From an uncultured Planctomycetota bacterium (GTDB lineage Bacteria > Planctomycetota > Planctomycetia > Gemmatales > Gemmataceae): DNA of 64,000 bases. The position numbers were made by a program, and so were the translations under genes. This document shows positions 11,809 to 58,186 of this stretch, in pieces. Below the pieces are notes generated by a model, which had not been told where the DNA came from, searched no databases, and worked only from the letters and a program-made list of their open reading frames with translations. Each line of letters starts with the position of its first letter. Positions within the stretch are counted from its first letter, which is position 1. The stretch covers positions 416,001 to 480,000 of the forward strand of contig CAWKHF010000006.1 of assembly GCA_963849325.1 (NCBI GenBank). Direction: 5' to 3'.

Positions 11809-11831
11809 CTGCATCCTGTAGGGGAACGACC

Positions 11832-15255: not shown

Positions 15256-15268
15256 GAAGCAATCTCCC

Positions 15269-15311
15269 AAGCCGCTTGCGGCTTAGCGGCCAAGCTAAGC
15301 CGCAAGCGGCG
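15269..15311. repeat. REP-like palindrome (AAGCCGCAAGCGGC family)
   Basis: GCCGCTTGCGGCTTAGC...GCTAAGCCGCAAGCGGC between convergent genes. Confidence 0.75.
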
Positions 15312-15321
15312 TCGAGGCCGC

Positions 15322-16082: not shown

Positions 16083-16117
16083 GTCCAGATGCTCCTTCGT
16101 CGGAGAAATTCGGATCT

Positions 16118-16152
16118 CAGCGTAAGCGAGGGAATGTCCCTCGCTTACGCTG
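16118..16152. repeat. REP-like palindrome (CAGCGTAAGCGAGGG)
   Basis: CAGCGTAAGCGAGGGA...TCCCTCGCTTACGCTG. Confidence 0.7.
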
Positions 16153-16166
16153 CGGGCTGTTAGCCC

Positions 16167-17088
16167 TTACTTCTTCGACTTCTGGGGCGGCGTGGGCAAT
16201 TCGCTGGCGTGGGGGGCGGCGGATCTTCAGGTTGGGCGTAACGTCGGCCTCGACGCGGCCCAGCGTCCACGCCAGGGCGCCTGAGAGCAAGGTTTGCATG
16301 ACCGGACTCTCCCAGACGTCCTCGCGGTGGCCCATCGACGTGTAGAAGACACGGCCCTTCTCGTGCTTGCGCGCCCAGGTGGCCGGGTAATTCGGCCGTT
16401 CGTAATCGAAATTCTTCATGCCCTTGGTGTCCTGCACGAGGATGACGTGCAGGTCCGGCGCGAAGTTCTTCAGCGAATACCACTCCTCGTTCAGCTCAAA
16501 ATCCTTGGCGTCCTTGATGCCGGGGAAGTGGGGATCGACCACGCGCATCCAGGCTTTTTGCTGCTGGCCGTGCTTGATGAACTCGCCGCCGAGCATGGCG
16601 ATGTAGGGATCGACCTTGTCGCGCTCCTGGTTCTGCCACTGGCCGCCCTTGCTGTGGAAGGTATCGCTGGCGCAGTGGCAGCCGACGAAGCCCTTGCCGC
16701 CGGCGACGGCGTCGAGCAGCGCCTTCTTGCCGGCCTTCGACATCGGCGGCGAACCGTCCTTGCACTTTTCGCTGAGCAGATCGCCCTGCGTCTCGAACAG
16801 GAAGCCGTCGAACGTGGGGAAGTCCTTCGACTCGAAGACGCGGCCATCCTTTTCGCAAAGGACGTCGAGGTTGAACTTGGCGCCGAACTCGGTGACGATC
16901 CGCTCGGCCAGCGACGGCTTGCCGCCCTTGCGCTCGACCACGGAGTGCTGGAAGCCGACCGAGCGCGTGTACATGAGGAGGCGGCGTTTGGCGGCGTCGG
17001 CCCCGGCCGTCCAGCCTTGCGGCAGGCGGGCGGCGCCCAAGAGCAGCGCGGCGAGACTCGATTGTTGCAGCCATTGACGTCGATTCAT
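16167..17088 (-). CDS. Tat-exported ThuA domain protein; frameshift near the 3' end
   Basis: MNRRQWL twin-arginine leader; GKGFVGCHCASD, EEWY, KGRVFYTSMGHREDVW. Confidence 0.88.
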
Positions 17089-17265
17089 GGGTGTTCTCCT
17101 GTGAGCGGCGCGGGTTGGGGGATCGGGGTCAGTGTAAGAGATGATGCCGTGGACTGCCAGGGGATAACGGCCTTGACGCCGCCAAGGCGGTCCTTATGCT
17201 GCCGGACTGCCCGGAAGGCACTGGAGGCTCCCTAGCGTTTCCGAGGTAGCGGAGGTCGGCAACAC

Positions 17266-19346
17266 ATGGCAGCCGTCGGCTCATCCCGCACGGCTCGGCT
17301 CGGGGCGTGCTTTGTCATCCTGATGCTGGCAGCCCTGCCGGGCTGCGCCTCGATCCGCGTCGATCGGACGCATCAATCCGGCCTGCTTGCCGACTGGCAC
17401 GCCAGCGCCGTCGGCCGCGACGAGTTGTCGCCGCGCACGGCGCAGACGCTGCGACAATGGGATCTTGCCGACCTGTATGCGCGCTCTGCCGACGAGGCCG
17501 AGGCGCGGCTGCACGACGAGGCCGTGCGCGAATCCGCAGCCGGACCTGGTGTTCGCCCTGGCCGAGATCAACTATGTCCGGGGTCGAAAGGCCGAGCGGC
17601 ACGACTGCGCCCACGCCACTGCCTACTACTACCTCTGCGCCGGCTACGCCTACCACTACCTGTTCGACGAGCCGCCGCGTCCGGCCCCGGACATGGAGTG
17701 CAACCTGAGAACGGTCGGCAACCCGCCGGGTCCGCTGCCCGACCGCTTCTCTCCACGCGCGTCCATCTTCGACCCGCGCTTCCGCCTGGCCTGCGAGCTG
17801 TACAACGCCGGCCTGGCCAAGTGCATCGCCGCCGCTCAGCGGGTCGGCCAGCTCGACCCGCGCCATGAGCTGCGCCTGCCGACGCCGGACGGCAAGGGCT
17901 TCACGCTCTCGGTCGCCCACACCGGCTTCACCTGGACGCCAGAGGAGTTCGGCCGGCTACTCATCTGCGCCGACTACGAAGTCATCGGCGTGGCCAACCA
18001 CCATCGCAACTATGGCCTGGGTGTGCCGCTCATCGCCACGCGCGCCGCCGGCACCGGCGACGACGAACCGGGACAAACCTTCTATCCGCGCGATGCCAGC
18101 TTCGCGGCCACCGCCTTCTTCCGCTTCGCGGGCAGCCTGGCCGACCTCGGTACCCAGCGCTGCGGCCGACTCGAACTGTACAATCCGCTCACCGTCAAGA
18201 CCGTTGAGACGGCCGGCCAGACCGTGCCGCTGGAGACCGACCTGACGACGCCGCTGGCCTACTTCCTGGCCAACAGTGACCTCGGCAACCTCGCCGACTT
18301 GAAGGGCTTCGTCTACGGCGAGCACATCCGCGGCCAGACCGGCATCCGCATGATTTCCCCCTATCAGCCCGGCAAAGTGCCCGTCGTCCTGGTCCACGGT
18401 CTGCTGTCGTCGCCCTTGACCTGGGCGCCGGTCATCAACGACTTGCAGGCCGACCCGGTGCTGCGCGAGCGCTACCAGTTCTGGTACTACTACTATCCGA
18501 CGGGCGCTCCCTACCTGGCCTCCGCCGCCGAGCTGCGCCGCCAACTGAACCAGCTGCGCGACGAGGTCGATCCGCGCCATCAGGACTCGGCCCTGGACAA
18601 CATGGTGTTTGTCGGCCACAGCATGGGCGGGCTAATCTCGAAGCTGATGACGGTCAACTCCGGCAACGACTTCTGGAAGCTGGTCAGCAACGATCCGTTC
18701 GACAAGGTGAATCTGCCCGAGGCGGCGCGGGCGGACCTGGAGCAGACGTTTTTCTTTCGCCGCGAGAGCTGCGTGACGCGCTGCATTTTCATCGGCACGC
18801 CGCACCACGGCTCGAAGCTGAGTCCGTCGCCCCTGGGCCGGCTGGCGGTCCACCTGATCCATCTGCCCGAAGACCTGATGACGGCGAGCCAGGATCTCAT
18901 CAAGGACAATTCGGAGCTGCCAACGCTATTGCGGCCGCGGCCGCTGCCGACCAGCGTCGATTTGCTGGACCCCAACGCGCCGGCCCTGGTGCTGATGGCC
19001 AACCGCCCGCGACCGGAGCGCGTTCACTATCACACCATCGCCGGCGTCGTCTCGACGGCGACGACCGACTTCGAGCGCTGGCTGGCCGGCGACCGCCGCG
19101 ACCCCGGCGACGGCGTCGTGCCCTACAAGAGCCCACATCGACGACGCCGATTCCGAGTTGGTGGTGCCGGCCGATCACTTCCACGTCCATCATCATCCGC
19201 TGGCGGTGCAGGAAGTACGGCGGATCTTGCTGGAGCACTACCAAATGTTCATCCGCCAGAAGGACGCTCAGAGGGAATTGCAGCTAACGTCCTCAAATGC
19301 GGACAAAGATGCCACGCCGGTACATCCACAAGCAGATCAGCCATAG
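17266..19346 (+). CDS. Alpha/beta hydrolase (lipase/esterase) lipoprotein; frameshifted
   Basis: Lipobox-like LPGC; VVLVHGLLSS, VGHSMGG nucleophile elbow, IGTPHHGS, GDGVVPY. Confidence 0.85.
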
Positions 19347-26035: not shown

Positions 26036-27321
26036 TTAACTAGGTCGCTGCATTCTTAGGATCATCCCCGCGCCGTCCTGTCGCTCCTCCGGCTCCTCAT
26101 CCTTCCAGAATACCGGCACGATGCCAAGCGTTTCTTGCTCCTGAATCAAGCAGGACAGGTTGTGGCAGAGGATTTTGCACAGCACTTCGTTGACCATCGA
26201 CATTTCGTTCTTGCTCGCCACCCTGTCGCCGAACTTCCGCTTGATGGCGCGAGAAGGTGATCTCGACGTTGCTGCGCTTGTGATAATGGGTCATGTACTC
26301 TTCCTGGTTGCACTGAAAGTAGTGGTAGGCTTTCTCGAAAGCGCCGCCAATCGCGCCCGTGCTGTTGGACTTGAAGGCAATGAACGCCTGCCCGCCGCAA
26401 GCTGCAACCTCTTCAAAGTTCTCCACGGAAAGGTAAGCCTTGTCGGCGCTCACTTCGCCGATCTCAAAATGCGTCTTCGTCTCGCGGACCAGCGGGACGA
26501 ACTGAGGGCAATCATGGGCATCCTTGTCCAGAATGCGGACGGCAGTAACGACATTCGTTTTCACGCCGGAGGCGATATGCGTCTTGACCCAGATGCCGCG
26601 CGTCCGCGTGACGCCGTACTTGTGGTCGTACCAGCGCTCGTAGACGGCAAGTGCTGAACCCGCTGCTGTCGATGGCGAAGTCTTTTTCGACCGGATCGCA
26701 ACGGACGGGCCTTTCGCCGACGAGCTGCTTGAGAACCGGCGTGTAGTACGGGTCTTCCATGAACGTTGTCGCCTTCATGCCGGGAATCAGCTTGCGGGTG
26801 AATCCTTTCTCGTAGGCTTCCTGCAAGGTCTGTGGAGAAGCGGCGGGCGCTGTAAACCGCAGTAAACCTTGTAGGCCATCGTGAAGACGGCATCACTAGA
26901 ACGCGTGCGGCTTCGTGCCCGTCGTGCTTGCCGGCCGCTGCGCGATCTGGCACGACGGCGAGCAGAGGTCGTGCAAGAGGACGCGGAGGCGGCGCTTCTC
27001 CGTGGCTTGCGCCATGTTGTACTTCGGCCAGTCCTGCTTGTAGGTCTTCCGCTCGGTGAGCGTAATCGTCTTCGTCTCAATCACGGTGCCATCCGGCAGC
27101 ACATCCCTCTTGTGGACGATGGACGCGGCGTAGAAGTGCTTGCAGGTGTTGCCGCCGTCAACGTGATCCAGGCAAGTGCAGGTCTTCGCTTCCAGGTTGA
27201 CGCGGTACGTCGCGTTACCGCTCTTGTTGGACTGGCTCGGCACAAGCCAGGTGCCGTCGTTCATGCGGTTCAGCCGACAGGTCGCCGCGATGATGAGTCC
27301 ACGCTGCTCTCTGGCGTCCAT
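26036..27321 (-). CDS. Transposase: N-terminal SWIM zinc finger + IS4/IS5-clan DDE domain; frameshifted
   Basis: CTCLDH...CKH (SWIM); FAIDSSGF, HDCPQF, ADKAY, YHKRSNVE.TFS (YREK-like). Confidence 0.85.
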
Positions 27322-31126: not shown

Positions 31127-32428
31127 TCAATCCGTTGCAGGCGGCGAAAACCGTAGGACCATCCGCGCGCTGTCCTGTCGCTCCTCTAGCTCCTCATCTT
31201 TCCAGAAACCGGGCACGATGCCAAGCGTTTCCTGCTCCATGAATCAGGCAGGACAGGTTGTGGCAGAGGATCTTGCAAAGCACTTCGTTGACCATCGACA
31301 CGTTCGTTCTTGCTCGCCACGTCTGCCCCGAACTTCCGCTTGATCGCGGAGAAAGTGCGTTTCGACGTTCCACCGCTTGTGGTAGTGCGCCATGTACTCT
31401 TCCTGGTTGAACTGGAAGAAGTGAAACGCCTTCTCGAAAGTGCCGCCAACCGCGCCCGTGCGCGTTGGACTTGAAGGCGATGAACGCCTGCCCGCCGCAC
31501 TCGGCGACCGCCTCAAAGTTCTCCACGGATGGCGTAAGCCTTGTCCGCGCATCACTTCGCCGATCTCGAAGTGCTTCCGCGTCTCGCTTGACCAGCGGGA
31601 CGAACTGCGGGCAATCGTGGGCGTCCTTGTCGAGAATGCGGACGGCCGTAACGACGTTCGTTTTGACGCCGGAGGCGATGTGCGTCTTGACCCAGACGCT
31701 GCGCGTCCGCGTGACGCCGTACTTGTGGTCGTACCAGCTTCTCGTAGCCGCGAGCTGCCGAAGCCGCTGCTGTCGATGGCGAAGGCCGTTTCGAGGGAGC
31801 GGAGCGGGCGGGCGCTGTCGCCGATCGAGTTGCTCTGAGGATCGGCGTGTAGTACGGGTCTTCCGCGAACGACGTCGCCTTCATGCCGGGAATCGGCTTG
31901 CTGACGAAACCCATCTCGTAGGCTTCGTGCAGGTCCGTGGTGAAGCGGCGGGCGCTGCAGGCCGCAGTAGACCTTGTAGGCCATCGTGAAAAGGGCATCG
32001 CGAACGGCAGTGCGGCTTCCTGCCGGTCGTGCTTGCCGGCCCGGTCGCGGGCCGGGAGACGGGAGCAGAGGTCGTGCAAGAGGACGCGGAAGACGGCGTT
32101 TCTCCGTCGCCTGCGCCACGTTGTACTTCGGCCAGTCCTGCTTGTAGACCTTCTTTTCGGTGAGGGTGATGGTCTTCGTTTCGATGACGGTGCCGTCGGG
32201 CAGAACGTCGCGCTGGTGGACGATGGAGGCGGCGTAGAAGTGCTTGCAGGTGAAGCCCGCCCTCGGTGTGGTCCGGGCAAGTGCAGGTCTTCGCTTCCAG
32301 GTTGACGTGATAGGTAGCGCGTCGCCGCCTTGGTGGACTGGCTCGGCACAAGCCAGGTGCCGTCAGGCCAGGCGGTTGAGCCGACAGGTCGCCGCGATAA
32401 TCAGGCCGCGCTGCTCTCTGGCATCCAT
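31127..32428 (-). CDS. SWIM-DDE transposase, second diverged copy; many frameshifts
   Basis: MDAREQRGLIIAATCRL, CTCPDH...CKH, FAIDSSGF, YHKRWNVE; stop codon lies in the left-end repeats. Confidence 0.85.
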
Positions 32429-35035: not shown

Positions 35036-37812
35036 ATGAAACGCACCTTGCTGGTCGTGCTGCCCTTGGCGGCGCTAACCCTCGGCCTGTTCGGCCACGC
35101 CGCTCCGTCGGGGCATTCGTCCGATGATCCGCCGAAGAAGTTCGAGGACTTCGACAAGGTCGTCAAGGGGGCCAAGCAATACGACGGCCTGTTCCGCCTG
35201 TTCCACAAGGACGAGCACCTGTACGCCGAGATCCGCACCGACCAGCTCGGCAAGCCGTTCCTCTGCCCCATCGCCATCGCGCGCGGCGCCGGCCTGGGCG
35301 GCTACACGCTCAACTTCGACGAGCAATGGGTGCTCCTCTTCAAGCGCGTCGGCGACAAGGTCCACCTGGTCCGCCGCAACGTCCACTTCCAGGCCAAGGC
35401 CGGCTCGCCGGCCGCTCACGCCGTCGAGACCACCTACACCGACTCGGTGCTGATGGCCCTGCCCATCAAGGCCATCAACCACGGCCACAACTCGCGTCCT
35501 GCTCGACTTCAACGACATCTTCATGACCGACTTCGCCCAGCTGAACCTGGGCTCGCTTCGACGCCAACCGCAGCACCTGGCACAAGATCAAGGCGTTCCC
35601 GCGCAACATCGAGCTGGAGGTGGCGGCCACCTTCGACGGCGGACGCGGCTTCTCGCTTCTTCGGCGACGACAGCGTCATCGACAGCCGCGGCAAGACCGT
35701 CGTCATCCACTACGGCCTGTGCCAGCTGCCCGAGCACGGCTATCAGCCGCGCCTGGCCGACGACCGCGTCGGCTACTTCCTCAGCGTCGTCAAGGACTTC
35801 AGCTCCGACAACGAGGACACGTCGTTCCTGCGCTACGTCAACCGCTGGCGGCTGGAGCGGGCCGAGCCGGTCGATCCCAAGCACCCCAACAAGCTGTCGC
35901 CGCCGAAAAAGAAGATCGTCTTCTGGATCGAGAAGTCGGTGCCCGACGAATACCGGGCGGCCGTGCGCGAGGGCATCCTCGAATGGAACAAGGCGTTCGA
36001 GAAGATCGGCTTCCGCGACGCCATCGAGGTGCGCCAGCAGGAGAACGAGGACTTCGATCCCGAGGACATCAACTACAACACGTTCCGCTGGATCACCACC
36101 GACCAGGGCTTCGCCATGGGGCCGTCGCGGGCCAACCCGCTGACCGGCGAGATCCTCGACGCCGACATCATCTTCGACGCCAGCATGGTCCGCTTCTGGC
36201 GCGAGGAGGCCAAGCTGTTCCGCGGCGACGGCAGCGCCGGCCAGCCTGATCCAGGCCACCCGCGCAGGGTTGGAGCCTGTTCGATCCGCCTGCGCGCCCG
36301 ATCGCCAGCGCGCAGGCTGTGATGGAAGGCTGGAACGATCCCAAGAAGGCGGAGCAGAACCGACTGCGCGCCCGCCTGCTGGCGACGCGGCAGGGTCTCT
36401 GCCAGTGCGGTGCCGCACATGCAGCTACGAGCTGGGCATGGCCGCCATGACGCTGGCCGCCAAGGGCGAGACCAAGCCCGGCGAGAAGCTGCCCGACGAG
36501 CTGATTCAGCAGGCCATCAAGGAAGTGACCATGCACGAGGTCGGCCACACGCTCGGCCTGCGGCACAACTTCAAGGCCAGCACCATGCTCAAGAACGAGC
36601 AGCTGCACGACACCAGCCATCACGCGCAAGCAAGGGCCTGGTCGGCTCGGTCATGGATTACGCCCCGATCAACCTCGCCCCCAAGGGCGTCAAGCAGGGC
36701 GACTACTTCAGCACGACCATCGGGCCCTACGACTACTGGGCCATCGACTACGCCTACAAGCCGCTGTCGGGCGGCACCGACGGCGAGGCTGGACAAGCTC
36801 AGGAGATCGCCACGCAAGGCGCCAAGCCCGGCCACGACTACGCGCACCGATGAGGACATGTTCAGCACGTCCGACCCGCTGGTCAACGTCTGGGACCTCG
36901 GCGCCGACCCGATGAAGTTCGCCCAGGACCGCATCCTGCTGGCCGAGGAGCTGCTCAAGGGGCTGGCCGACCGCGTCGTCGACAAGGGCGAGGGCTACCA
37001 GCGCGCCCGGCTGGCCTTCAACGTGCTGCTGGGGCAGTACGGCAACGGCGCCTACCTGATCGGCCAAGTTCATCGGCGGCGAGTACATGCACCGCGACCA
37101 CCGCGGCGACCCCAACGGCCGCGATCCGTTCGTCCCCGTCACGGCCGACAAGCAGCGCGAGGCGCTGAAGTTCTTGCAGGAGCACATCCTGTCGCGACAA
37201 GCACTTCCAGTTCTCGCCGCGGCTGCTGCGCCGTCTCGGCGCCGATCGCTGGCTGCACTGGGGCAACGAGATGGACGCGTTCGGCTCGGTCGATTACCCG
37301 CTGCACCAGCGCATCCTGAACATCCAGCGGATCGTGCTGGAGCACGTTTTCGACCGGCCGTGCTGTCGCGCATCCAGAACAACGCCGTGCAAGGCGGACA
37401 AGGACGAGAAGCCGCTGACGATCGCCGAGGTGTTCCGCGGCGTGACGGACGGCGTCTGGAGCGACGTGCCGGACAAGGACGGCAAGGAGGCCAAGCAGCC
37501 GCGTGTCCTCGTCGGTGATCCGCCGCAACTTGCAGCGCGAGCACCTGAAGAACCTGTACACCTTGGTGCTGGGCAAACGACAGCAGAACGATAGCTTCTT
37601 CTTCTTTTTCTTCGGCGGTGGCGACAGTTCGGTGCCGCCGGACGCCCGCAGCCTGGCGCGCATGCACCTGCGCGACATCGGCAAGCGCATTGACGCCACG
37701 CTCGGCGACAAGCAAGGCGACCGTGGACGACACGACCCGCGCTCACCTGGAGGAGTGCCGCGAGCGCATCGCCAAGGTGCTGGGCGCCTCGATGCAGGTG
37801 AATGAGCCGTAA
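35036..37812 (+). CDS. Zinc-dependent metalloprotease (DUF5117/DUF4953 type); many frameshifts
   Basis: Signal peptide, PRLADDRVGYF, WNKAFEKIGF, NPLTGEILDADI, HEVGHTLGLRHNF, SVMDY. Confidence 0.9.
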
Positions 37813-39463: not shown

Positions 39464-42246
<2,783 letters not shown>

Positions 42247-45765: not shown

Positions 45766-46818
45766 TTGACTGCCAGGCTAAACGTGGTGACGGGAGCGAC
45801 GGGCTTGCTCGGCAGCCACATCGTCGAGCACCTGCGGAGACGCGGCGAACGGGTCCGCGCTCTGGTGCGTCCGGCCAGCGACACGAGCTTCCTGCGTTCC
45901 CTCGGCGTCGAGCTGGCCGTTGGCGACCTGACCAGGCCGAACAGCCTTCGCCGCGCCGTCGAGGGCGCCGATGTCGTTTATCACTGCGCCGCCCGCGTCG
46001 GCGATTGGGGTCCGTGGCGCGTCTTCCAACGCGAGGTCATCGACGCCACCGCCAACCTGCTCGATGCTTGCCGCGCCGCCGGCGTCGGCCGAGTGCTGCA
46101 CGTCAGCTCGATCATCGTCTATGGCCATCCCCACATCCGGCAGGAGCTGTTCACCGAGGACGAACCGCTCGGTCAGGATCTGTGGGTATGGGACCACTAC
46201 TGCCGGGCCAAGGTGCGGGCCGAGGAATTGTGTCGTCAGTATCCCGGCGAGTTGACCATCGTCCGCCCCAGCTGGATTTACGGCCCGCGCGACCGCACGA
46301 CGCTGCCGCGCATCCTCAAGGCGCTGGACGCCGGCCGAATGGGGATCATCGGCCCGGGCGACAATCTGCTGAACATCGTGTACGCTGGCGACGTGGCCGA
46401 AGGCGCTATCCGGGCGGCCAACCATCCGCGGGCCGCCGGCCAGGCATACAACCTCAGCAGCGAGGGCGAGATCACGCAACGCGACTTCCTCAATTTGCTC
46501 GCCGACGTGCTGGGCCGGCCGCGCATTCGCCGCCATGTCTCCTACCGGCTGGCCTTCTGGGCCGGGCTTCTGTCGGAGGTGATCGGTCGAATCATTCGCA
46601 TCCGCCGGCCGCCGCACCTGACGCGCTACGCCGTGGCCCTAATCGGCCGTTCGACGCGCTTCAGCATCGCCAAGGCCCGCGAGCAGCTCGGCTGGCAGCC
46701 GCGGATCGACGTCCGCGAAGGCGTGCGCCGCACCATCGACTGGTACAAAAAACAAGGTTTCGAGCCAGCGGACCACCGAGCCGCGACCGTTAGAGAGCGG
46801 GGTTTCTCCACTTCCTGA
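45766..46818 (+). CDS. NAD-dependent epimerase/dehydratase (3-beta-HSD-like)
   Basis: VTGATGLLG, YCRAK, RPSWIYGP. Confidence 0.9.
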   Translation: MTARLNVVTGATGLLGSHIVEHLRRRGERVRALVRPASDTSFLRSLGVELAVGDLTRPNSLRRAVEGADVVYHCAARVGDWGPWRVFQREVIDATANLLDACRAAGVGRVLHVSSIIVYGHPHIRQELFTEDEPLGQDLWVWDHYCRAKVRAEELCRQYPGELTIVRPSWIYGPRDRTTLPRILKALDAGRMGIIGPGDNLLNIVYAGDVAEGAIRAANHPRAAGQAYNLSSEGEITQRDFLNLLADVLGRPRIRRHVSYRLAFWAGLLSEVIGRIIRIRRPPHLTRYAVALIGRSTRFSIAKAREQLGWQPRIDVREGVRRTIDWYKKQGFEPADHRAATVRERGFSTS

Positions 46819-46840
46819 CGGTCGCGGCCCCGACCGAGTC

Positions 46841-47799
46841 ATGAGCATGAGCCACTTCGCCGACCGTCTGGCCGCCGCCGTGCGGGCCAAGGGCAACGCC
46901 GTGTGCGTCGGCCTCGATCCGCGCTGGGAATCGCTGCCGGCGAGCCTGCGCGATCGCCACGGCGGTGCGACGCTGGCCACGGTGGCCGCCGCCTTCGAGG
47001 AGTTTTGCGGCCGGGTGCTCGACATCGTGGCTCCGCTGGTGCCGGTGGTCAAGCCGCAGAGCGCCTTCTTCGAGGCGTGCGGCCCGGAGGGCATGGCCGT
47101 GCTGCAACGTCTGTTGCGCAAGGCCCGCGACCTCGGTCTGCTGACCATCCTCGACGGCAAGCGCAACGACATCGCCTCGACGGCGGCCGCCTACGCCGAC
47201 GCCGCCTTCGCCGGCACGCGCCTGGCCGGCCGTACCTATCCCGTCTGGGAGGCCGACGCGCTGACGATCAACCCCTATCTCGGCCGCGATGCCGTCGAGC
47301 CGTTCCTGGAGAGCGCCCGCCGCGCCTCGCGCCGGGCGTGTTCGTGCTGGTGCGGACCAGCAATCCAGGCGCCGGGCAGTTCCAGGATCTGCTCGTTTCC
47401 AGCGGTACGGAGCCGGCCCGACCGTTGTATCAGCACGTCGGCGCCGCCGTGTCGGCCTGGGCGCGGGAGAACCTCGGCGCCTGTGGCCTGGGCGACGTCG
47501 GCGCCGTGGTCGGTGCGACGTACCCGGCCGAACTGGCGATGCTGCGGGCGATTTTGCCGGAGGTGATCTTCCTGGTGCCCGGCTTCGGCGCTCAGGGGGG
47601 CACGGCCGCCGGCGTCGCCACCGCCTTCCGCTCCGACGGACTGGGCGCCGTCGTCAACAGCTCGCGCGGCATCCTCTTTCCCTTCTCGCCCACCGAGCCG
47701 AACTGGGAGGTGCGTATCGACGAAGCGGCTCGCGCCGCTGTCGCCGCCCTGGCGTCAATTGGCAAAGATGTCGGTGGCGGCGGCGCGCGGCGCTCGTAA
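46841..47799 (+). CDS. pyrF: Orotidine-5'-phosphate decarboxylase; frameshift near 47330
   Basis: VCVGLDP, KPQSAFFE, DGKRNDIAST, LVRTSNPG, LVPGFGAQGG, VNSSRGI. Confidence 0.93.
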
Positions 47800-49819: not shown

Positions 49820-50536
49820 ATGCGCATCCTGGTCATCGCGGACATTCACGGCAATTGGCCGGCCCTGCAAGCGGTGGCGGCCGAGCCGCACGACGTTTGC
49901 CTGTGCCTGGGCGACCTGGTCGATTACGGTCTGGAGCCAGCCCCGTGCATCGGCTGGGTGCGCGACAGGGTCCAGTACGCGGTGCGCGGCAACCACGACC
50001 ACGGCGTCGCCCAGAACGTCATCGTCCAGGGCCGCGCCGGCTTCAAGTACCTGACCGGCGTCACGCGGCCGCTGACACGCGAACGTCTGGGCGAGGGCGA
50101 CTTGCGCTTCCTGTCCCGTCTGCCGGTGACGCGCCTGGTGACCCTGGACAATACGCGCTTTTTGCTGGTCCATGCCACGCCGCGCGATCCGCTCGACGAG
50201 TACGCGCCGCCCGACGTCGAGTTCTGGACGCGGCGGCTGCAAAACGTCGAGGCCGACGTCGTCTGCGTCGGCCATACCCATCAGCCCTACGTGCTGGAAC
50301 TGGGCGACAAGCTGGTCATCAACCCCGGCAGCGTCGGCCAACCGCGCGACGGCGACCCGCGCGCCTCCTGCGCCATCATCGAAGATTATAAAGTCGATCT
50401 CAAAAGGATCGATTATCCTATCGAGGACACCGTCGCCGCCATCCAGGGCAGTTCGCTGCCGGAAAACGCCAAGGACATGCTGATCGACGTTTTCCGCACC
50501 GGCGCGCCGATGCCGAATGGACAAAAGAGTTCGTAG
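49820..50536 (+). CDS. Metallophosphoesterase (YfcE/calcineurin-like)
   Basis: DIHGN, GDLVDYG, GNHD, GHTH, NPGSVGQPRDGD. Confidence 0.93.
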   Translation: MRILVIADIHGNWPALQAVAAEPHDVCLCLGDLVDYGLEPAPCIGWVRDRVQYAVRGNHDHGVAQNVIVQGRAGFKYLTGVTRPLTRERLGEGDLRFLSRLPVTRLVTLDNTRFLLVHATPRDPLDEYAPPDVEFWTRRLQNVEADVVCVGHTHQPYVLELGDKLVINPGSVGQPRDGDPRASCAIIEDYKVDLKRIDYPIEDTVAAIQGSSLPENAKDMLIDVFRTGAPMPNGQKSS

Positions 50537-50640: not shown

Positions 50641-52391
50641 ATGGCTGGCCGATGCTTTTACGTCTCGTGGGTGGACCTTCGCACCGATCCGTGGCCGCAG
50701 TGGGAGAAGGTCCGACCCGGCACCGGGGAGATGATGCTGGAAGGGCAACGCATCCGCTGCCTGCCGGTCGACCATCCCCACTGGCCGGCCGTCCCGCTGC
50801 TGGAGCAGGCGGGGCCGCCGATGGTGGCCGACCCGCGCCTCGGCCGCTACGTCTGGCCGGGCATCCCGCTTGTGCTCGACGGCCGACCATGCCGCCTCTA
50901 CACCGGCCCGACGCTCAGCGCCCTGTTCCATCCGGGCAGTCGATTCTGCAATCTCGAAGGACTCGATGTCGTCTACCTCTTGTATCAGCCCGAACGCGCG
51001 GACGGATCGCACGAGCTGTTGCGCAACGTCCTCGCCCGACTCTGCCAGGCCCGCGACATCCAGAACGCGGACAAGCGAATCCAGTTCGTGGACGTCAAGG
51101 GCATCGCCGACCCAACCGACCACGCCGCCATCATTCGAGCGATCGAACAATGGCTGGGGCGGGACGACCCGTTCGATCTCGGCCGCCGCGGCTCGGCGAA
51201 AAACCCGCCGCGCATCGTCATCAACCTGAGTCCGGGCACGCCGTCCATGCACGCCGCCTGGCTGATGCTGCGCTGGAATGGAGCGCTGGGCGGGCGGAGA
51301 GTATCGTCGAATTCGTCCAGGGCGACGGCGGACTGGTCGAGCGCTGCCGTCGAGGGACCGCCGCCCAACCCGCTGCGCATCGTGCCGATCGACGTGCTGG
51401 CTCAGTGGTCGGCCGCAACGGGGGCTGGCGCCGCAGCCGGCCCTCGGCCCGGAAGAACCGAGCGTGCCGCTGGAAGAGCTGAACGGCCCGCCCTTCGACG
51501 ACCTGCGCCAGAAGATCGACCACGCCGCCATGCTCGGCCTGCCGATCCTCTTGCAGGGCGAGCGCGGCACCGGCAAGACGTTCCTGGCCCACTACTACCA
51601 TCAGCGCCGACAATTCTACGCGCCTTCCAGGCGGAGCGAGGCCGCGCCGGCCAAGACCGGCGGCGCAAGGCGACGGCAAGGAGGCGATGCGAAAGGCCGC
51701 CGAACGCTTCCCGGAGAAGACCGGGCCGAGCAGCTTCGTCGGCGTCACGCTGTCGGAGTTCGCCGACCTCGATACGCTGCGCGACACGCTGTTCGGCTGG
51801 GCCAAGGGAACGCCTGGACCGGCGCCTACAAGGCGTACGACGGCCTGCTCGGCGAGGCGCACGGCGGCACGCTGTTCCTCGACGAGATCCACCACCTGAC
51901 CCGGCCGTTGCAGGCGGCGCTGCTCGGCCCGCTCAACGCCGCCGCTATCGCCCCAAGATGGCCGACCTACGAGGTCATCAGCCACTTCGACCTGGTCGTC
52001 GCCACCAACGATCCGCAAGTGGCGCGACAAGATGGCCGACGACTTCCGCGACCGCATCGAGCGGATCGTCCTGGAGGTGCCGTCGTTCCGCTCCTTTCAG
52101 CGACACGGGGCGGACATCATCTGGCGGTTCTGGGAGTTCACGCTCCGCCGCCGCTGCCGCGAGTGCGGCATCGAGTACAGCGGCGAGGGACGGGCTTGGC
52201 CGGAGTGCTGCGAGCAGCTGAAGGGCTGTTCCGACGTCACCCGCTGGCGCGGCAACTGGCGCGATCTGCAACGCCTGGCCGACAACTTGCTGCTGCATCT
52301 GACCTCGTCCCGCGACGGCCGGCCGTCGCCGATCCGCTGGGACCGCGACAAGCTGGAGCACGCCATCGCCGAGACGTTCGCGGAGACGTGA
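50641..52391 (+). CDS. sigma54-type enhancer-binding AAA+ ATPase with RtcR/CARF-like N-terminal domain, no C-terminal HTH; frameshifted
   Basis: DPTDH and IVINLSPGTPSMHAAW; Walker A GERGTGKT; LFGWAK..AWTGA (GAFTGA variant); GGTLFLDEI; VVATN; DFRDRI; WRGNWRDLQR. Confidence 0.8.
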
Positions 52392-52438: not shown

Positions 52439-53458
52439 ATGGCCAGACGTGCCGGTGTGCGCAAGGGCATTCAGAAACAGGGACAGACGCAGGTGCAAAT
52501 TCAGACCACCATGCGGCGCCGGGCCGGCGTGGAGGAACTGAGTACCTGGCAGGAGACGGCAGTTCGCCCCGGCGTTTCCCCGCGCGGCGGCGACCTGGGT
52601 TACGATGAGGAGGCGGACGGCGATCAGCTGCTCGACGACGGCGAGGAATCCGGGTCCAGCGAACCGACGGGCGATGATTGCTTCCAACCCGAGGAGTCGG
52701 ACGATGAGCCGCAAATCCGTCATCGGCTGACAGTGGCCGATCTTCTCGGTTCACGACCTCCGGTAGTGCTTCTCCGTCTGAGCCTGGAAAACGGTGCGGT
52801 CGCCGTTCGGACCTGTGCGCGACCGGCTTCGCGCGATGCCGGCCAGGCTCTGGAGCTGCTGCGTGACTTCGTGACTCGATGCTTCCAGGATGGCCGCGCT
52901 CACTTCACGGACGCCGAGTGGGACCAGCTGCTCGGCAATGCGCGTCGCCGTTGGTCCGCCGTTTAACGCTGTTGCTACGACTGGCGGTCAAGGGCCGAGA
53001 GAAGGTCCGTCTCGACGAGGAGAGCGAGGCGGCATTCACGCCGCACGACATCGGCCTGGAGCGCTTCGCCAACAAGTTCGCCGCCCTGCCGGACGGCACG
53101 CCGTTCAGCATTCGTCTGCTCTTGTTGGACCAGCGCGGCCGCGAGCGCGGCGAGCACTTCTTCGATCAACTGCCCGAACGCCGTCAAGCTCCTGGCTCTG
53201 CGGCGGGCCTTGCAGCGCGAGCGGCAAAAGGGCGTGGCGGTCAGCGACCACGAATTCCGCGACGAGATCCAGCACGCCCTCGAAGAACTGCTCGGCATGG
53301 AAGTGCCCAAGCCCACCGAAGACCAGGTGCGGCGACGCCTGCGCGACAACTTCAAGCGCAAAGGTCTGGGCGACCTCTTCCCCAACCAGGCCGCCCGCCA
53401 GCGCGAGCACGACCGGATGGCGGCGACTGCCCCCGTCCGTACCGAGGAATCCGCATGA
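52439..53458 (+). CDS. Divergent sigma54 (RpoN)-like protein, about 340 aa; two frameshifts
   Basis: Gln-rich N-terminus, acidic linker, NKFAALPDGTPFSIRLLL, and VSDHEF...VRRRLRDNF...FPNQAARQR C-terminus in RpoN order. Confidence 0.55.
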
Positions 53459-56400
53459 GCGCCAGCCTGCTCGCGCATGTCGGTCTAGATCTTGTCACTC
53501 CTCGTGTCGCAGCCCTGCGGCTAGGGGAGTTGACCGTCGAGCCGGTGCAAACCGTTCTCGGCCGCGCCGACCTGGCGGGTAGCTCGCGCCCACTGCCATC
53601 TAGTGCCGTGCTCTTGAGGCTCGGCGATCAGTCGTTGTGGCTGCCCGCACCAGCCGCACCAGCCGCGCCGTCCGAGCCGGACGAAGGCCGAGCACCGATC
53701 TATCTGCACGGCGGACAAGAACTCGTCCTGCCCTTCGTCCGTCTCTTCGTTCTCCAAGCCGACCAGGAACCGGACAAGGCACGGGTCGAATACCTGGGTC
53801 TGTCCGATTGGTTGGACGACGCCGTTGCCGTGTGGCGCTTCGAGCCGGCACGGCGGGATGGCTCCCCCCGTCCGCTGCTGGACCATCTCGAACAAAACGC
53901 GACTTCGCCGGCCGAAGCCTTGCAAGCGATCAGCCGGGTACTTTGTTTCGCCTTGTTTGGCGCGGCAAGCCCGGCCGTGGTCGGTGGCCTGCGTCTGCCC
54001 GCCTGTCCGATGTGGCTCCGCCCCGTAGGAGAAACGCCATTCGCGCGCCGTATCGCCCGCGCGCTGGTGGTCACTGCTCGCCTCTCGGCCGATCCCGCCA
54101 AACCGACCGTGCCCTCCACGAACTTGCGGACATCGGCCTACCGCATTCGCCCCGCCGAGCCGCGCGATTGGGGTCTCGATCCCGTCCACACGCCGGAAGG
54201 CGCCGACATCCGCCTGACCGGCCGACTCGGCGTCGGTGTCGCTGTGCGCGGCCGGGCGCTGCACGCTCCGGAGACGGAACGGCCGCCGTTGTCGGCGTCC
54301 ACGGCCCGGCTGCCGTTCGCCGGCTACAACGACCCTCGCCGTCTGCTGATGGCCGCCAACATGCAGGCACACGCCGTGCCCCTGCCGCGACAGGAACCGC
54401 CTTGCGTCCGCATGACTCCCGAAGCGGATGACCCGCCCGGCGTCAACCTCCGCGTCGGCTACCTCGCCTGGCAGGGTTGGAATCACGAGGACGCCTGGGT
54501 GCTGTCCGAATCCGCAGCCCGGCGTCTCGGCACGCTCCAGGTTCTGGTGCAGACCATCGCCATCCGTGCCGTCGAGGTGGCTCCCGATCTGCTGGTGCAG
54601 TGCGGCCAGCCGGTCGAACGTGGCCAGCTGCTCGTCCGTCGTTTTGTGGCCCCGGCCTTGCTCTGCCCGTCGCTGGAACTGCTGGCGACGCTGGAAGACC
54701 TGGACGACAAGGTACCGCTTCGGCCGGAGGTCGATGACTCGGCTGCGGAGAGCGGCACCATCATCCGGCTTGAAGAATGGGACCTGCGCGACCGGCGCGG
54801 CCTTCCGATAGACTGGCAAGTGCCGGAAGCGGTGGCCGGGGCATTCCGGACTGTTTATCGCATCCACATCGAACGCGCGCTGCCGCTGAGCGTTGGCGAC
54901 AAGCTGGCCAACCGGCACGGCCACAAGGGCGTCGTCGGCGCCATCCTGCCCGATGACGACATGCCGCGCTGGCGCGGTCGGCCGCTGGAAGCCCTGATCG
55001 ACCCGATCAGCGTCCTCAACCGCTCTAACTGGGGACAGGTCTACGAGGCACTGGCCGGGGCGCTGGTGGAGCCGGGTCAGGTGCGCGACGTCAACGGTGT
55101 CTCCGGCGAAGAGGTGCGGGCGGAGGCACAACGGGCAGGGGCCGACGCACAGGGCCGTTGGCTCATCGAGCCTCCGATGGCGGCACGCTGGTTGACGAAG
55201 GAAGTGCGCGCCGTCGCCGGTGTCCAGTACGTCATGCGGATGCCGCATCACGCCGCCGACAAGATCTCCGGCAATCCTCCACCGCCGCCATCGTTGGGTT
55301 ATCGGGTGCGCCGCCGATCGCAGCGGCTAGGCGAGATGGAGCACTGGGCGCTGTGGGCGCACGGCATCGGTGCGCACGGCCTCCTCCGCGACCGAGGACG
55401 GCGGACAGAGGGCGCTGTCTCCCGCCGTGGCCCGTCTTCGCCGCTTGCTCGGGTCGGCCGGGTTCGGCATGGACGTCGAGGGCGGATCGCTGCTCGTTCG
55501 GAAGCTGGCGCTCGACGCGGAGCCACCCGCTGATAACAAGATATTATCTCTCCTTAAAGAGAATGAAACAAGCACCGCGGAGAGCGGCGTGGAGGGAAGC
55601 AAGGAAACGAAGTCCCCGCGATCCCTGGCCGAACTCTACGACGCCCTGGATGCGGTCGCGCCCGAAACGCCGACCGTACTCGTCTTCGATCCGCCGCTCC
55701 TCCGCCCATCCAAGGGGGATGACGTCGAGGTGGCGCTGCGCTGGATGCCCGTGTTGCCCGCCTGCGATCGCCCGCCGCGGCGTTGGTTCGACGGCTCGGA
55801 GGAGCCGCACGAATTGACCGCCGACCTGCGCCGCCTGGTCCGCCTGATTCGCAAACGTCGGCAAGCGCGGACGGAAGACGAGGACGCCGCCAACGCGGAA
55901 CTGTTCTACGCCGCTCGCCAGTTCCTATCCGATGCCTACATCGCGGCGGTAGGGCGCGGGGCGACCGGCCCATTCAGCAGTAAACTGGCTTACTTGCGTC
56001 GCGGTGTGCTGGGGCAGCGCTTGCCCCGCTCGGCACGGGCGACCGTCTCTCCCGGCGGTACGCGGCGTTTGGGACTGGACGAAATCGGTCTGCCGCCGGC
56101 GCTGGCCCACACTCTTTTCGGGCCAGGACTGCCGAGCGAGGAAAACCAGTTGGCCGAGGTCGTCGCCGGCCGCTGGGTGTGGCTCAAGCGCGATCCGGTA
56201 TTGCACCGCTGGGGTCTGCTGCCGGTGCGCGTCCGTGTCGTACCCGGCGTCACTATCCGCCTGCCGGCGTCGCTGCTGGGACCGCTGGGGGCCGATTTCG
56301 ACGGCAACACGGTCGCCCTCTTCGCCGCGTTGCCCGGTGCCCTCGCCGACCTCCACGCCTGTTCGCCGCCGGCGCTCGCCTGGCACCCGTTGCTCGACGA

Positions 56401-57307
56401 AGCCCTGTTCCAACCGAGCAAGCAGTATCAATACGGTCTTTTCCTTTTGTCACAAAGCAGAGAGCAAAAGGAACGATTGCAACTGGCGTTGCAAGCCGAG
56501 GGCGCCCTGACTTGGCCGGATGAGTCCGACCCCAAAAGGGCATTTTCAACCTGGGTCCGTCAGGCCATCCAGCAGGGACCGAAAGGACATTGGTGGGCCA
56601 TCCTCGAAGTATACGCCCTGCACGCCCTGGCCGACGATCCCGCGATGGGCTTCGGCCTAGGTGACGTGGACGAACTGGCGCGGTTGCCGGTGGTCCGTTG
56701 CGGAGCGGCCAAGGATCTGTATGGCGGTGTCGAGCCGCCGGCGTCCCCCGCGGCGCGGACGGACTGGGAGCGAAACCGGAAGGCGATGGCGGACATCTTG
56801 CACGGACAAAGCCTGACGATCTATCGGCGCCGCGGCGATTTGGGCGATCCTATCGCCGACGTCATGGTCGCCGCCAAGGCGTCCATCGGCCAGTTCGGCG
56901 GCGCCCTGCGCCGGCTGGTGTACTCCGCGGACCATCTTCGACCCGAGGACATCCAAATGGCCCAATGTCTGACCGAGCAGGTCACGCAAAAGGCGCTGAG
57001 CGTCAAAGCGGGCAAGCCTCCGCTGTTGTACGCCGACTTCGAGCGGCAGCTGCGGCAACTGCTCAAACGGCAAGAGTTGAATGAATCCGAGCGGGAGAAA
57101 CTGCAAACGCTGCTGGCTGAGATCGGCAAGAAACTGGAGCCGGTCTGGACGGCTTTGGGTTCGTTGATGCCGAGCGAACCCAAAGCCTGGTTGGAATGGC
57201 TGCGGAAGCCGCACGAATTGGACGAACTCGTCGCGGCGAAGGGCGAGATTCGTCTGCCGCTGGACGATTTACGCTTACGCGCGTTCCTGTCGGAGCCTGA
57301 AGCGTAA
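53455..57307 (+). CDS. Minimal two-barrel RNA polymerase with beta- and beta'-like parts, probably one chain (frameshift near 55370)
   Basis: beta motifs RLLMAANMQAHAVP, GWNHEDAWVLS, GDKLANRHGHKGVV, RSNWGQ, QRLGEMEHWAL; beta' motifs PVLPACDRP, LGQRLPRSAR, RDPVLHR, ADFDGN, LRRLV, EQVTQ. Confidence 0.88.
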
Positions 57308-57355: not shown

Positions 57356-58186
57356 CTAGGCGAGTCCGTCGGGGGCGTTGCTGAAAGTGCCGTGGCCGAA
57401 GCGGATTTTCGGCGGCGTCACCTTGGTGCGGTGATCGGGGGCGGCGTTGCGGCCGGCAGCGTCCTGGCCGTGGAAGTAGTCCTTCTGCCAGCCATCGCCC
57501 CGGACTTCGCCCTGGGCTTTCTGCTGGTGAAACATGTTACGCGATTTCTGCCACTCCAGGTAAGAGTTGTACACCTCGGGGTTGTCGGCCAGGCGGTTGT
57601 AATTGATGGTGGCCCCTTCGAGGTCGGCGCAGACGTTGCTGATCAGGGGGACCGCCTGGAAGAGCGGCTCGCCGACGTTGTAACGAACCGGCTCATTGGG
57701 CCGCATGATCTTGTAATTCATCGTGAACGACATGCTGATCCAGTCGCTCTCGACCAGCGCGGTGAGCGGGTGCAAATTGTGCTTGAAGTAGTTGACCGGC
57801 CCGAGGATCAGCAAGCGCGAGCCGGGAGGATTGGTGCGGAAGAGGAACGGTGTGTTCCAGGTGATGATGCCCTCGCCGAACTGGTTGTTGATCCAGCCCA
57901 TCCAGAACTCGGGGGCCGCGTCGAACCAGAACTCGATGGTGCCCGGCTCCATCCGGCCGCGCCAGATGGCGGTGAAGCCGACCGGGTTGTTGATCCAGAA
58001 GCCCGTCTGGTTCATGATGGTCAGGGGCAGGCAGCGGTAGGCGTGGTGGCTGGGCGTGGCGTCCATCCATTCGCGCCGCCTCTCGGCCCAGCCCCAGTCC
58101 CAACCCGTGCCGTCGCGGCGGTGCTTCTTCAGCGTCTCATCGCCGGCAATTTGATAAATGTTGATCTCAAAAGGCGGTTGTGACAT
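57356..58186 (-). CDS. DUF6065 family protein
   Basis: RREWMD...AYRCLPL, QFGEGIITW, LVESDW, FTMNY, WQKDYF. Confidence 0.8.
   Translation of the reverse strand: MSQPPFEINIYQIAGDETLKKHRRDGTGWDWGWAERRREWMDATPSHHAYRCLPLTIMNQTGFWINNPVGFTAIWRGRMEPGTIEFWFDAAPEFWMGWINNQFGEGIITWNTPFLFRTNPPGSRLLILGPVNYFKHNLHPLTALVESDWISMSFTMNYKIMRPNEPVRYNVGEPLFQAVPLISNVCADLEGATINYNRLADNPEVYNSYLEWQKSRNMFHQQKAQGEVRGDGWQKDYFHGQDAAGRNAAPDHRTKVTPPKIRFGHGTFSNAPDGLA

Follow-up and report, generated by a model that had tools for sequence, protein, structure and literature searches.

In a 64,000-nucleotide stretch of DNA from an uncultured bacterium of the Gemmataceae (Planctomycetota; the whole stretch is hereafter called the window), the plus-strand region 53455–57307 encodes a single-chain, two-barrel RNA polymerase, in which a cut-down bacterial β subunit is fused head to tail to a cut-down β′ subunit. 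Its product comprises about 1283 residues after removal of one base from the assembled sequence. At intact loci of this family, three genes lie almost end to end in one orientation, and the polymerase gene comes last, after a gene for an AAA+ ATPase and a gene that we call mid. The explanation towards which we lean, by a modest amount, combines a single-chain polymerase whose break in the window is artefactual, a three-gene module, mid as the promoter factor and the ATPase as the switch.

A cut-down β fused to a cut-down β′

The assembly presents the polymerase as two open reading frames (ORFs): ORF1 at 53455–55533 in frame 1, starting from an ATG, and ORF2 at 55370–57307 in frame 2, with a GTG at 55370. 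The two overlap by 164 nucleotides and differ in frame by +1. The β-like half is read in frame 1 from 53455 to 55375 and holds a family-specific N-terminal region, fork-like motifs, the first double-psi barrel and a flap-like insert. One surplus assembly base, placed approximately at 55376 by a contig of sequencing run X1 (see below), moves the reading to frame 2. There the β′-like half (55377–57307) runs to the stop with a switch-2-like motif, the second barrel with its metal triad, and bridge-helix-like and trigger-loop-like helices. An initial annotation, made from the sequence alone, had recognized 13 peptide motifs of β and β′ in this region; all of them were recovered in the ORF1 and ORF2 translations, in the order given, and each was located by coordinate. 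Along the plus strand, the β-like half carries DPVHTPEG (54178–54201), RLLMAANMQ.. (54340–54384), NHED (within 54475–54510) and GDK..HKG (within 54892–54936). The β′-like half carries the switch-2-like motif LRRGVLGQRLPRSAR (55994–56038), KRDPVLHRWG (56186–56215), the metal-binding triad D-F-D-G-N (56294–56308), the bridge-helix-like FGGALRRLV (56894–56920) and the trigger-loop-like AQCLTEQVTQKALSVKAG (56960–57013; AQxLTEQxTQxALSVKAG in the family).

Both assignments were borne out by profile searches. The Pfam family RNA_pol_Rpb2_6 matched ORF1 (E = 1.3e-22, 80.8 bits against a cut-off of 23.4), and RNA_pol_Rpb1_2 matched ORF2 (E = 2.2e-11, 44.7 bits against a cut-off of 25.3). The NCBIfam models for bacterial rpoB (1.4e-32, 112.4 bits against an equivalog cut-off of 896) and rpoC (4.7e-06, 24.7 bits against 963.5) matched in the barrel regions only. 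The polymerase is not the housekeeping enzyme, because these scores lie far below the equivalog cut-offs. Membership in the full-length RpoBC fusions failed as well, with 52.3 bits against 5372 for PRK09603 and 43.5 against 4632 for PRK14844, and with about 1283 residues as compared with about 2850.

A profile of 32 full-length family members aligned with solved bacterial β chains at E = 2.5e-61, placing family positions 328–687 on the barrel, the flap and the C-terminal region, and shorter pieces also aligned at the fork and at the RALMGANMQ region. The same profile matched β′ chains at 8.2e-40, with family positions ~657–992 on β′ residues ~160–535. These matches to chains in the PDB agree with the earlier impression that the motifs lie close to those of the cellular enzyme. 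The first ~240 and the last ~270 family residues had no sequence match in the PDB, and β′ before ~160–210 was unmatched.

To these data we added an AlphaFold2 model of a 1187-residue member, which is N-terminally truncated and 54% identical to the first half of the window polymerase. From a 40-sequence alignment, it was predicted as a single chain with a predicted local distance difference test score (pLDDT) of 87.8 and a predicted template modelling score of 0.89. Foldseek ranked bacterial β first (9e-23, ~750 columns), and the fold search VIA returned Rpb2/β at a Z of about 27, with 440–490 residues aligned over model residues 1 to ~595. In structure, the family-specific N-terminus of the model therefore corresponds to part of the lobe–protrusion region of β/Rpb2. 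As β chains filled the VIA fold table, the β′ barrel is supported at the level of sequence, by the Pfam match and the PDB profile match. Matches to viral structures in BFVD were weaker, with giant-virus β subunits at 3e-17, and no row among the top 50 was named YonO. At rank 36 stood a ‘minor tail protein’ of an uncultured siphovirus, aligned over 922 columns across both halves (TMq 0.31). This match is reminiscent of the tape-measure-fused polymerase of phage P23-45 (bioRxiv 10.1101/2022.12.01.518664).

Section 8 of PMC2919709 gives eight residues, from Ruprich-Robert and Thuriaux, as invariant in all two-barrel polymerases: the three Asp of DxDGD, the Arg and Pro of R.P, the Asp of the xED motif and the two Lys of GDK..KG. 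All eight are invariant columns in alignments of both 32 and 40 family members (E/D of NHED, K..K of GDK..HKG, R.P of KRDP, and D.D.D); the window copy keeps seven, its third Asp reading Asn. The switch-2-like motif is likewise conserved in the family consensus. As stated in the abstract of PMC2919709, switch 2 and the funnel are conserved in the DNA-dependent subgroup, and switch 2 is linked to double-stranded DNA templates. Because the eight invariants are kept and a switch-2-like motif is present, we infer that the family enzyme is probably an active DNA-dependent RNA polymerase. Weighing against this, the bridge helix and the trigger loop are seen as motifs and predicted helices only: FGGALRRLV and AQxLTEQxTQxALSVKAG lie where helices are predicted and include invariant columns of G, R, Q, L and K. 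The zinc sites of β′ are absent from the family, since no Cys column is invariant or nearly so in either alignment; the initial annotation had seen no zinc-ribbon cysteines in the window copy.

The fused state of the gene is evident from its homologues. Searching 1.84 billion cluster representatives with the β-like part, phmmer found 77 matches at E ≤ 1e-30. Most of the top 66 are about 1180–1480 residues long (mostly single chains of 1200–1400 residues), and the query covers their first ~640 residues. The two window ORFs tile end to end onto the single chains P0002, P0005 and P0007 (1284–1399 residues), meeting between WALWAHG and ..SATEDGGQRALSPAVARLRRLL (..SATEDGG..). The first ORF2 residues, in which the last part of β had been suspected, indeed align to the end of the β-like half of the homologues. 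When the family hidden Markov model (HMM) was run on six-frame ORFs, the frame was open across the junction in all 15 other loci that cover it (L183, L179, L182, L173, L010, L175, L185, L176, L186, L011, L180, L181, L172, L178 and L009). Two loci are split elsewhere, L184 at about position 497 and L009, both away from the junction. Since the homologues are single chains and all 15 loci are open across the junction, fusion is the normal state of the family. The window polymerase is thus very probably one fused gene with an artefactual break, as proposed at the outset.

Two separate genes, whose β-like and β′-like products would assemble after translation, could account for the two ORFs in the assembly and for the GTG at 55370. 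This reading is already contradicted by the read-through at 15 loci, the dozens of 1200–1400-residue single chains and the alignment of the first ORF2 residues to the β-like half, and the frame is restored simply by removing one base; we regard it as very improbable.

The break itself was examined in public reads and in the genome as a whole. A Logan contig of run X1 (151 nucleotides, depth 2.1, 99% identical) covers 55343–55494 with one mismatch and with one base absent at 55376, so that frame 1 is joined to frame 2. X1 was the only public run with part of the stretch (word share 0.05, 3 of 30 bins), and the DFDGN codon lies outside its coverage. It may be the sample of origin; it is independent of the assembly consensus, but not of the organism. 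Codon usage placed the frame switch near 55390. For a census of such switches, a codon-usage model was trained on 652 long ORFs of the genome, all 14 contigs were segmented by the Viterbi algorithm, and switches were counted when they lay on the same strand and at least 15 codons from a stop or an open end on both sides. Over the 8.16 Mb of the genome, 2225 frameshift-like switches were counted, a rate of 27 per 100 kb. A same-genus control assembled in short contigs (G009) has 2 in 213 kb, or 0.9 per 100 kb, with 67% of its sequence called coding by the codon table of the window genome. Another control, G013, was dropped (GC content 52%, only 2 training ORFs, only half of the sequence called coding).

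Within the window, Pfam searches on frame segments found the leucyl-tRNA synthetase gene (39541–42237, minus strand) in at least five frame pieces, orotidine monophosphate decarboxylase (46814–47784) in two and a DUF4953 Met-zincin (36414–37513) in four. No living cell could carry an essential single-copy gene in such a state, so the breaks in the synthetase gene point to the assembly. For the break near 55376, an error in the consensus of an indel-rich assembly is the most likely cause, in line with the sequencing indel suggested initially.

A programmed +1 ribosomal frameshift joining the two halves would be permitted by the +1 shift and the long, 164-nucleotide overlap. However, it is unneeded in any homologue, the frame is already restored at the DNA level in the near-identical contig, and the same type of break occurs ~2225 times in the genome; we give this mechanism hardly any credence. 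More generally, an indel-rich assembly of long contigs can hide fused polymerase genes as split ORFs, and split-gene findings from this genome are to be read with its ~2225 frame breaks in mind.

Several observations weigh against an intact module in the window. The module has seven within-gene frame switches in 6.7 kb, six of which pass the strict criterion, at a density 3–4 times the genome mean (hand-calculated Poisson P of about 0.01). Where the relatives, in alignments of 32 and of 40 sequences, invariably have DFDGD, the window copy has DFDGN (codon AAC at 56306–56308). If real, this replacement in the metal triad would abolish catalysis by the window copy; an assembly substitution error at this codon is possible. 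The initial annotation had listed ADFDGN as a motif, without remark that its final residue replaces a family-invariant Asp. In addition, the only one of 40 relatives that carries the gene, G020, has a decayed copy (L009, contig C288, 9583–13964). Its polymerase is broken at about model positions 200, 741 and 1081, one of the breaks being a TAA stop, its mid gene is missing, and its ATPase is reduced to a CARF piece of 155–178 residues. The breaks in L009 may be real, that assembly being of short contigs.

Together with the split L184 polymerase, these observations are what one would expect if the window copy, and perhaps the whole module, were a real decaying pseudogene in which the frameshift and the Asp-to-Asn change are biological. 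We consider this quite unlikely. The surplus base is absent from the X1 contig, essential genes of the same window are broken just as often, breaks throughout the genome are ~30 times as frequent as in the same-genus control, and the coding signal continues undiminished across every break.

The mid protein and the CARF–AAA+ ATPase

Three features went unnoticed in the initial annotation: the partner genes and their conservation, the placement of relatives in defence islands, and the replacement of Asp by Asn in the catalytic triad. In the window, the ATPase gene occupies 50641–52391 on the plus strand. PADLOC, NCBIfam, Pfam and the homologue in L010 identify it as a CARF-containing AAA+ ATPase of the sigma-54-activator type, resembling bacterial enhancer-binding proteins (RtcR_PspF1 class). 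The mid gene follows at 52439–53458 (plus strand) and encodes a putative sigma-54-like factor of ~340 residues, recognized by a mid HMM, by hhalign and by a fold match. Its stop overlaps the polymerase ATG by 4 nucleotides. By codon-usage segmentation, the ATPase gene lies in five frame pieces, with switches near 51412, 51664, 51808 and 52009; the mid gene lies in three, with switches near 52939 and 53164. The N-terminus of mid (MARRAG..) was located by coordinate, and the mid HMM matched the window pieces at 2.8e-31 in 52967–53455 and more weakly elsewhere.

The order AAA+–mid–polymerase recurs in the window, L010, L011, L176, L178 and L179 (L173 is a copy of L179). In L010, from a Planctomycetales metagenome-assembled genome, a 656-residue Sigma54_activat AAA+ protein is followed by a 316-residue protein without a Pfam family and a 1340-residue polymerase. 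In L011, from a Victivallales metagenome-assembled genome, the same order is found with 618, 317 and 1320 residues. Overall, mid was found in the window, L010, L011, L175, L176, L172/L185, L178, L184 and L173/L179, and the ATPase in the window, G020 (CARF part only), L010, L011, L176, L178 and L173/L179.

The mid protein matched no family in Pfam, PADLOC or PHROGs and had only five close relatives in 5.8 billion proteins. Its AlphaFold2 model (11 sequences; pLDDT 71.9) comprises a confident core at 93–318, an N-terminal helix and a disordered acidic linker. The helix is basic or Gln-rich and the acidic linker comes after it, an arrangement that we take to recall regions I and II of sigma-54. 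A VIA search of 48,161 representative chains ranked Aquifex sigma-54 on promoter DNA first (5ui5_V; Z 5.4, root mean square deviation 5.2), aligning 160 residues with mid model positions 96–311 on sigma-54 204–397. E. coli sigma-54 came third (Z 4.8, 163 residues), and all other rows aligned at most 84 residues.

Supporting this likeness, hhalign of a profile of 11 mids against 42 sigma-54 sequences of the same phylum gave a single match (E = 6.8e-4, 127 columns, probability only 27%). The match stays in register over the sigma-54 helix-turn-helix (HTH), TPRGxFPLK, the RpoN box and the IPSSRQRK tail. Controls gave E values of 0.66 for the reversed alignment, 0.24–0.88 for eight column shuffles and 0.27 for the polymerase alignment. 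In its C-terminal domain, mid has four residues shared by all 11 sequences (D, R, P and R), and these fall on SD, KYR, IP and QRK of sigma-54. An earlier hhalign run against nine closely related sigma-54 sequences (E 0.017, probability 2.7%) was superseded by the 42-sequence alignment.

The kinship has several points against it. A Z of 5.4 is lower than the 7–8 often reached by unrelated models, the hhalign probability is low, none of the 11 mids matched the Pfam sigma-54 families (DBD, CBD and AID) even at E ≤ 10, and Foldseek with mid returned nothing at E ≤ 0.001. A search of the ESM Atlas with mid gave nothing scored above 0.88. The lack of a Pfam sigma-54 match counts against mid being a sigma-54, but leaves untouched the claim that mid is related to the DNA-binding part and works like it. 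On this evidence, we give roughly even odds, or a little better, to mid being a shortened protein distantly related to the DNA-binding half of sigma-54.

Contact between mid and the polymerase was addressed by complex prediction with the L010 mid protein and residues 1–680 of the L010 polymerase, each given its own shallow alignment (11 rows for mid). Three runs scored ipSAE values of 0.81, 0.80 and 0.77, as compared with 0.00 in all three controls. In a calibration that holds roughly here, own alignments having been used, a score of 0.80 was reached by 58 of 80 solved complexes and by 2 of 110 mismatched pairs. Between runs, agreement in contacts was 53% or more, and partner pLDDT was at least 67. 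The predicted interface on the polymerase spans residues 389–509, together with 33–37 and 58–65. Its main patch lies between NHED (363–364) and GDK (525–527), that is, in the flap-like insert. The same insert in bacterial β is the flap, the docking place of sigma factors.

The prediction supports binding of mid to the polymerase. It is to be set against two reservations: part of the score may reflect solved sigma-54 holoenzymes, and the predicted binding comes from the proteins' own shallow alignments. We judge it somewhat better than even that mid is a sigma-54-like partner bound to the polymerase.

A variant of the polymerase with 1658 residues is encoded at L180 (1196–6169) and L181 (455–5428), with an N-terminal extension of ~340 residues at the place of mid. 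The extension gave no mid HMM match at E ≤ 1; it shares with mid a short FPDGATF-type motif (hhalign E 0.016 over 31 columns), and this protein may be a mid–polymerase fusion.

The PADLOC profile RtcR_PspF1--CARF_AAA_HTH matched the window ATPase gene in a CARF piece (3.2e-12) and an AAA+ piece (5.7e-17), and the intact L010 ATPase at 9.2e-64; the best match of the class was 2.4e-83. The profile was matched to about position 408 of 468 only, its HTH part remaining unmatched. Pfam Sigma54_activat fell on the window piece 51413–51664 and reached E = 2.6e-32 in L010. Membership in RtcR itself failed, with 63.6 bits in NCBIfam against an equivalog cut-off of 650. The CARF classification paper of Makarova and colleagues reportedly defined the RtcR_PspF classes.

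Consistently, the protein ends ~40 residues after the GNWRxL sensor-II motif (GNWRDL in the window) and has no HTH; in L011, a long, different tail follows. The GAFTGA loop of enhancer-binding proteins touches sigma-54 and is normally a fixed motif. At this position, six members read GSFTDA, GSWNLA, KSYTGA, GYATDV, GTFTGA and AWTGA (the last in the window), and such variability is unusual. Nor does the ATPase accompany mid everywhere: its gene was unrecognised upstream of mid in L172, a point against a fixed three-gene module. Since an integrase and a 166-residue ORF stand there instead, the ATPase is not obligatory in the module.

These likenesses suggest how the products might act together. 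The polymerase, encoded with two constant partners, the ATPase and mid, would be directed by mid, which would dock on the flap-like insert of the β-like half and serve as the enzyme's own promoter-recognition factor. The CARF domain of the ATPase would sense a nucleotide or an RNA-end signal, and ATP would be used to switch the system on. The AAA+ ATPase would then remodel the mid–polymerase–DNA complex, as enhancer-binding proteins do with the sigma-54 holoenzyme. Three features favour remodelling of the module's own complex: the ATPase is without a domain for DNA binding, its GAFTGA loop drifts, and it is transcribed together with a sigma-54-like protein. That this complex, and not the host sigma-54 holoenzyme, is the target remains a tentative reading, to which we give about a third of our confidence. 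In its fullest form, the three genes would be a complete, host-independent, signal-gated transcription machine, whose AAA+ ring opens a closed complex of mid with the 140-kDa polymerase; this is conceivable, and on balance we doubt it.

The ATPase could instead be an ordinary enhancer-binding activator that acts on the operon via host sigma-54, as RtcR does for rtcBA, leaving the small polymerase untouched. Its Sigma54_activat domain and RtcR_PspF1 class fit such a role. Sigma-54, moreover, is present in the host genome and in all 61 sampled genomes of the phylum, which counts against remodelling of the module's own complex. However, the genes for the ATPase, mid and the polymerase point the same way and lie close together, rather than diverging. 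The ATPase also ends without a tail for DNA binding, and its version of GAFTGA is degenerate and differs between members. A search for sigma-54 promoters (consensus TGGCAC-N5-TTGC, at most two mismatches) found 68 matches in the window as against 70.5 expected, and no −24/−12 match lay in the gaps before 50641, 52439 or 53455. Neither the presence of host sigma-54 nor the lack of a −24/−12 promoter near the module settles the ATPase target, and we hold an ordinary activator to be rather unlikely.

Spread, genomic settings and candidate roles

The polymerase family is rare. A motif scan of metagenomes yielded 16 loci, 13 with clear polymerase matches; L177 and L187 gave no polymerase HMM match and L174 only a weak one, and all three were set aside. 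A scan of a genome collection with the family alignment found at least two true members, L010 and L011, the other matches listed being mostly canonical rpoB and rpoC. The family occurs in 1 of 40 relatives (the decayed G020), and none of 400 other sampled genomes of the phylum matched the polymerase at E ≤ 1e-60. No match was found by tblastn against PLSDB plasmids and INPHARED phages. PADLOC-DB 2.0 gave no match for the window polymerase halves, the L010 polymerase or the mid proteins, and PHROGs gave only domain-level matches of the polymerase to phage RNA polymerase β families. In source records, the family proteins are unnamed or called ‘hypothetical protein’.

The IMG/VR viral contigs held no close member, the best match having 28% identity. 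Four of these contigs (L092, L093, L095 and L096) have matches of ~2300–2460 nucleotides over family positions 338 to ~1005–1069, at 28–29% identity, and could encode other compact fused β–β′ polymerases of phages.

Defence or mobility genes lie nearby in 7 of 10 distinct loci with usable flanks. The flanks hold Cas1 in L010, MkoA and a phospholipase D (PLD) nuclease in L179/L182, a CARF7 protein in L186, integrases in L172 and L180, and in L176 part of a GajB-like UvrD helicase, for which a housekeeping role is also possible. L011 has a type II methylase, a Pycsar-type TIR effector (PycTIR), BrxL and PglZ. Its TIR effector, BrxL and PglZ lie within 10 kb downstream of the module (10828–18721), a double C5 methylase lies upstream, and the locus is clearly a defence island. 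The remaining three loci (the window, G020 and L183) have neither defence nor mobility genes.

These settings of relatives suggest that, without reliance on the host polymerase, the module serves phage defence or the expression of a mobile element's own genes. It is a tentative assignment, not far short of even in our estimate, and the module's own neighbours in the window, which are not defence genes, count against it. In the host-independent machine considered above, with the doubt stated there, the CARF domain would sense an infection signal, either cyclic oligoadenylate or a damaged-RNA end. The module would be a miniature, orthogonal form of enhancer-dependent transcription, through which defence islands or mobile elements express genes or produce RNA while the polymerase of the host is hijacked or has been shut off.

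QDE-1-type enzymes copy RNA. The polymerase could likewise be active without being promoter-directed, as a defence effector whose activity is to copy RNA or to yield products that are untemplated or short, with mid as a nucleic-acid-binding adaptor. The defence-island settings, the CARF sensor on the partner ATPase and the weakness of the sigma-54 likeness of mid would all suit an effector, and two-barrel enzymes with dual DNA- and RNA-templated activity are known, according to parts of PMC9508822. Yet the family sequence is far nearer to cellular DNA-dependent β and β′, and the switch-2-like motif is kept, switch 2 being tied to double-stranded DNA templates in the abstract of PMC2919709. Furthermore, the part of sigma-54 to which mid aligns, the HTH and RpoN region, binds DNA. 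An effector of this kind is therefore unlikely in our view, and promoter-directed transcription remains the reading we prefer.

Known systems and neighbouring features

The nearest architectures are Orf6 and YonO, the nearest sequences are cellular β and β′, and the nearest logic is that of sigma-54, enhancer-binding ATPases and RtcR. The family resembles RpoB and RpoC, including the fusions PRK09603 and PRK14844, in both double-psi barrels, in the catalytic residues and in the order of the fork, switch-2-like, bridge-helix-like and trigger-loop-like motifs. Natural RpoBC fusions have the same β-then-β′ order, and the best sequence and fold matches of the family are bacterial β chains. In contrast to RpoB and RpoC, the new polymerase is less than half the size, its first ~240 residues have no sequence match to β, the β′ N-terminal region is unmatched, and conserved cysteine columns are lacking. 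The host retains rpoB and rpoC of its own, and a sigma-54-like factor and an ATPase would come with the module.

Orf6 of the yeast cytoplasmic plasmid pGKL2 is an Rpb2::Rpb1 fusion of 982 residues, of eukaryotic descent and with ~250 alignable residues (PMC2919709, section 5). By the description in parts of that paper, it is alike in being a single chain with the second-largest subunit first, in having about half of each subunit deleted with the barrels and bridge helix kept, and in being carried by a mobile or selfish element. Compared by description, Orf6 is very divergent and has no detectable trigger loop, whereas the new family is of bacterial type, has a trigger-loop-like motif and has other partners.

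YonO of the Bacillus prophage SPbeta is, according to parts of PMC5467207, likewise a bacterial single-chain two-barrel DNA-dependent RNA polymerase, of ~100 kDa and outside the core genome; section 8 of PMC2919709 also treats YonO-like proteins. The comparison with YonO made in the initial annotation holds for the architecture. It does not hold for the sequence: YonO has very distant homology only to multisubunit polymerases (parts of PMC5467207), whereas the new family is much nearer to cellular β and β′. Its profile matches β at 1e-61 and it was not found in phage or plasmid collections, so that it is set apart from YonO, as far as the description of YonO goes.

RtcR is a CARF–AAA+–HTH activator of an RNA repair operon (parts of PMC7790460 and PMC9650030). 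The module resembles the sigma-54/enhancer-binding system and RtcR in the Sigma54_activat AAA+ domain and RtcR-like CARF sensor of its ATPase, and in the alignment of mid to the HTH and RpoN-box region. Unlike RtcR and enhancer-binding proteins, its ATPase has no HTH, has a degenerate GAFTGA and scores below the RtcR cut-off. Compared with sigma-54, mid has ~320 residues against about 480–600 and no Pfam sigma-54 match, and its polymerase partner would be a dedicated single chain, not the host core enzyme.

A literature search found no description of the polymerase family or the module; many subscription papers were out of its reach, and a mention in a table is possible. The family and the three-gene module are apparently undescribed, and there is a substantial chance that the module as a whole is new. 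Single-chain relatives of cellular RNA polymerase are rare, and those met in the literature (YonO, Orf6, the phage tail-tape-measure fusion and QDE-1) are very divergent. With near-cellular active-site motifs in ~1250 residues, the family indicates how far β and β′ can shrink and presumably still work. It offers a tractable minimal model of the multisubunit enzyme and possibly a compact orthogonal polymerase for engineering. The partner genes are the weightier point. If they act on the polymerase, ATP-driven, enhancer-dependent promoter opening would have been duplicated as a portable module, and wired to a sensor domain typical of CRISPR-associated signalling, linking the mechanics of transcription initiation with immune signalling.

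The module is flanked in the window by a YfcE-type metallophosphoesterase gene (49820–50518, plus strand), which has a weak PADLOC PDC-S10 match (2.2e-05), and by a DUF6065 protein gene (57368–58168, minus strand; 8.6e-64). Neither is conserved beside the module at other loci. Polysaccharide-export genes are further neighbours. Elsewhere in the window, two 15-nucleotide strings on the minus strand are repeated ~5.1 kb apart, at 26962–27256 and 32065–32362. Both fall in a stretch of lower GC content (0.56–0.61 between 24 and 36 kb), and their recurrence suggests a repeated element or a duplicated segment.

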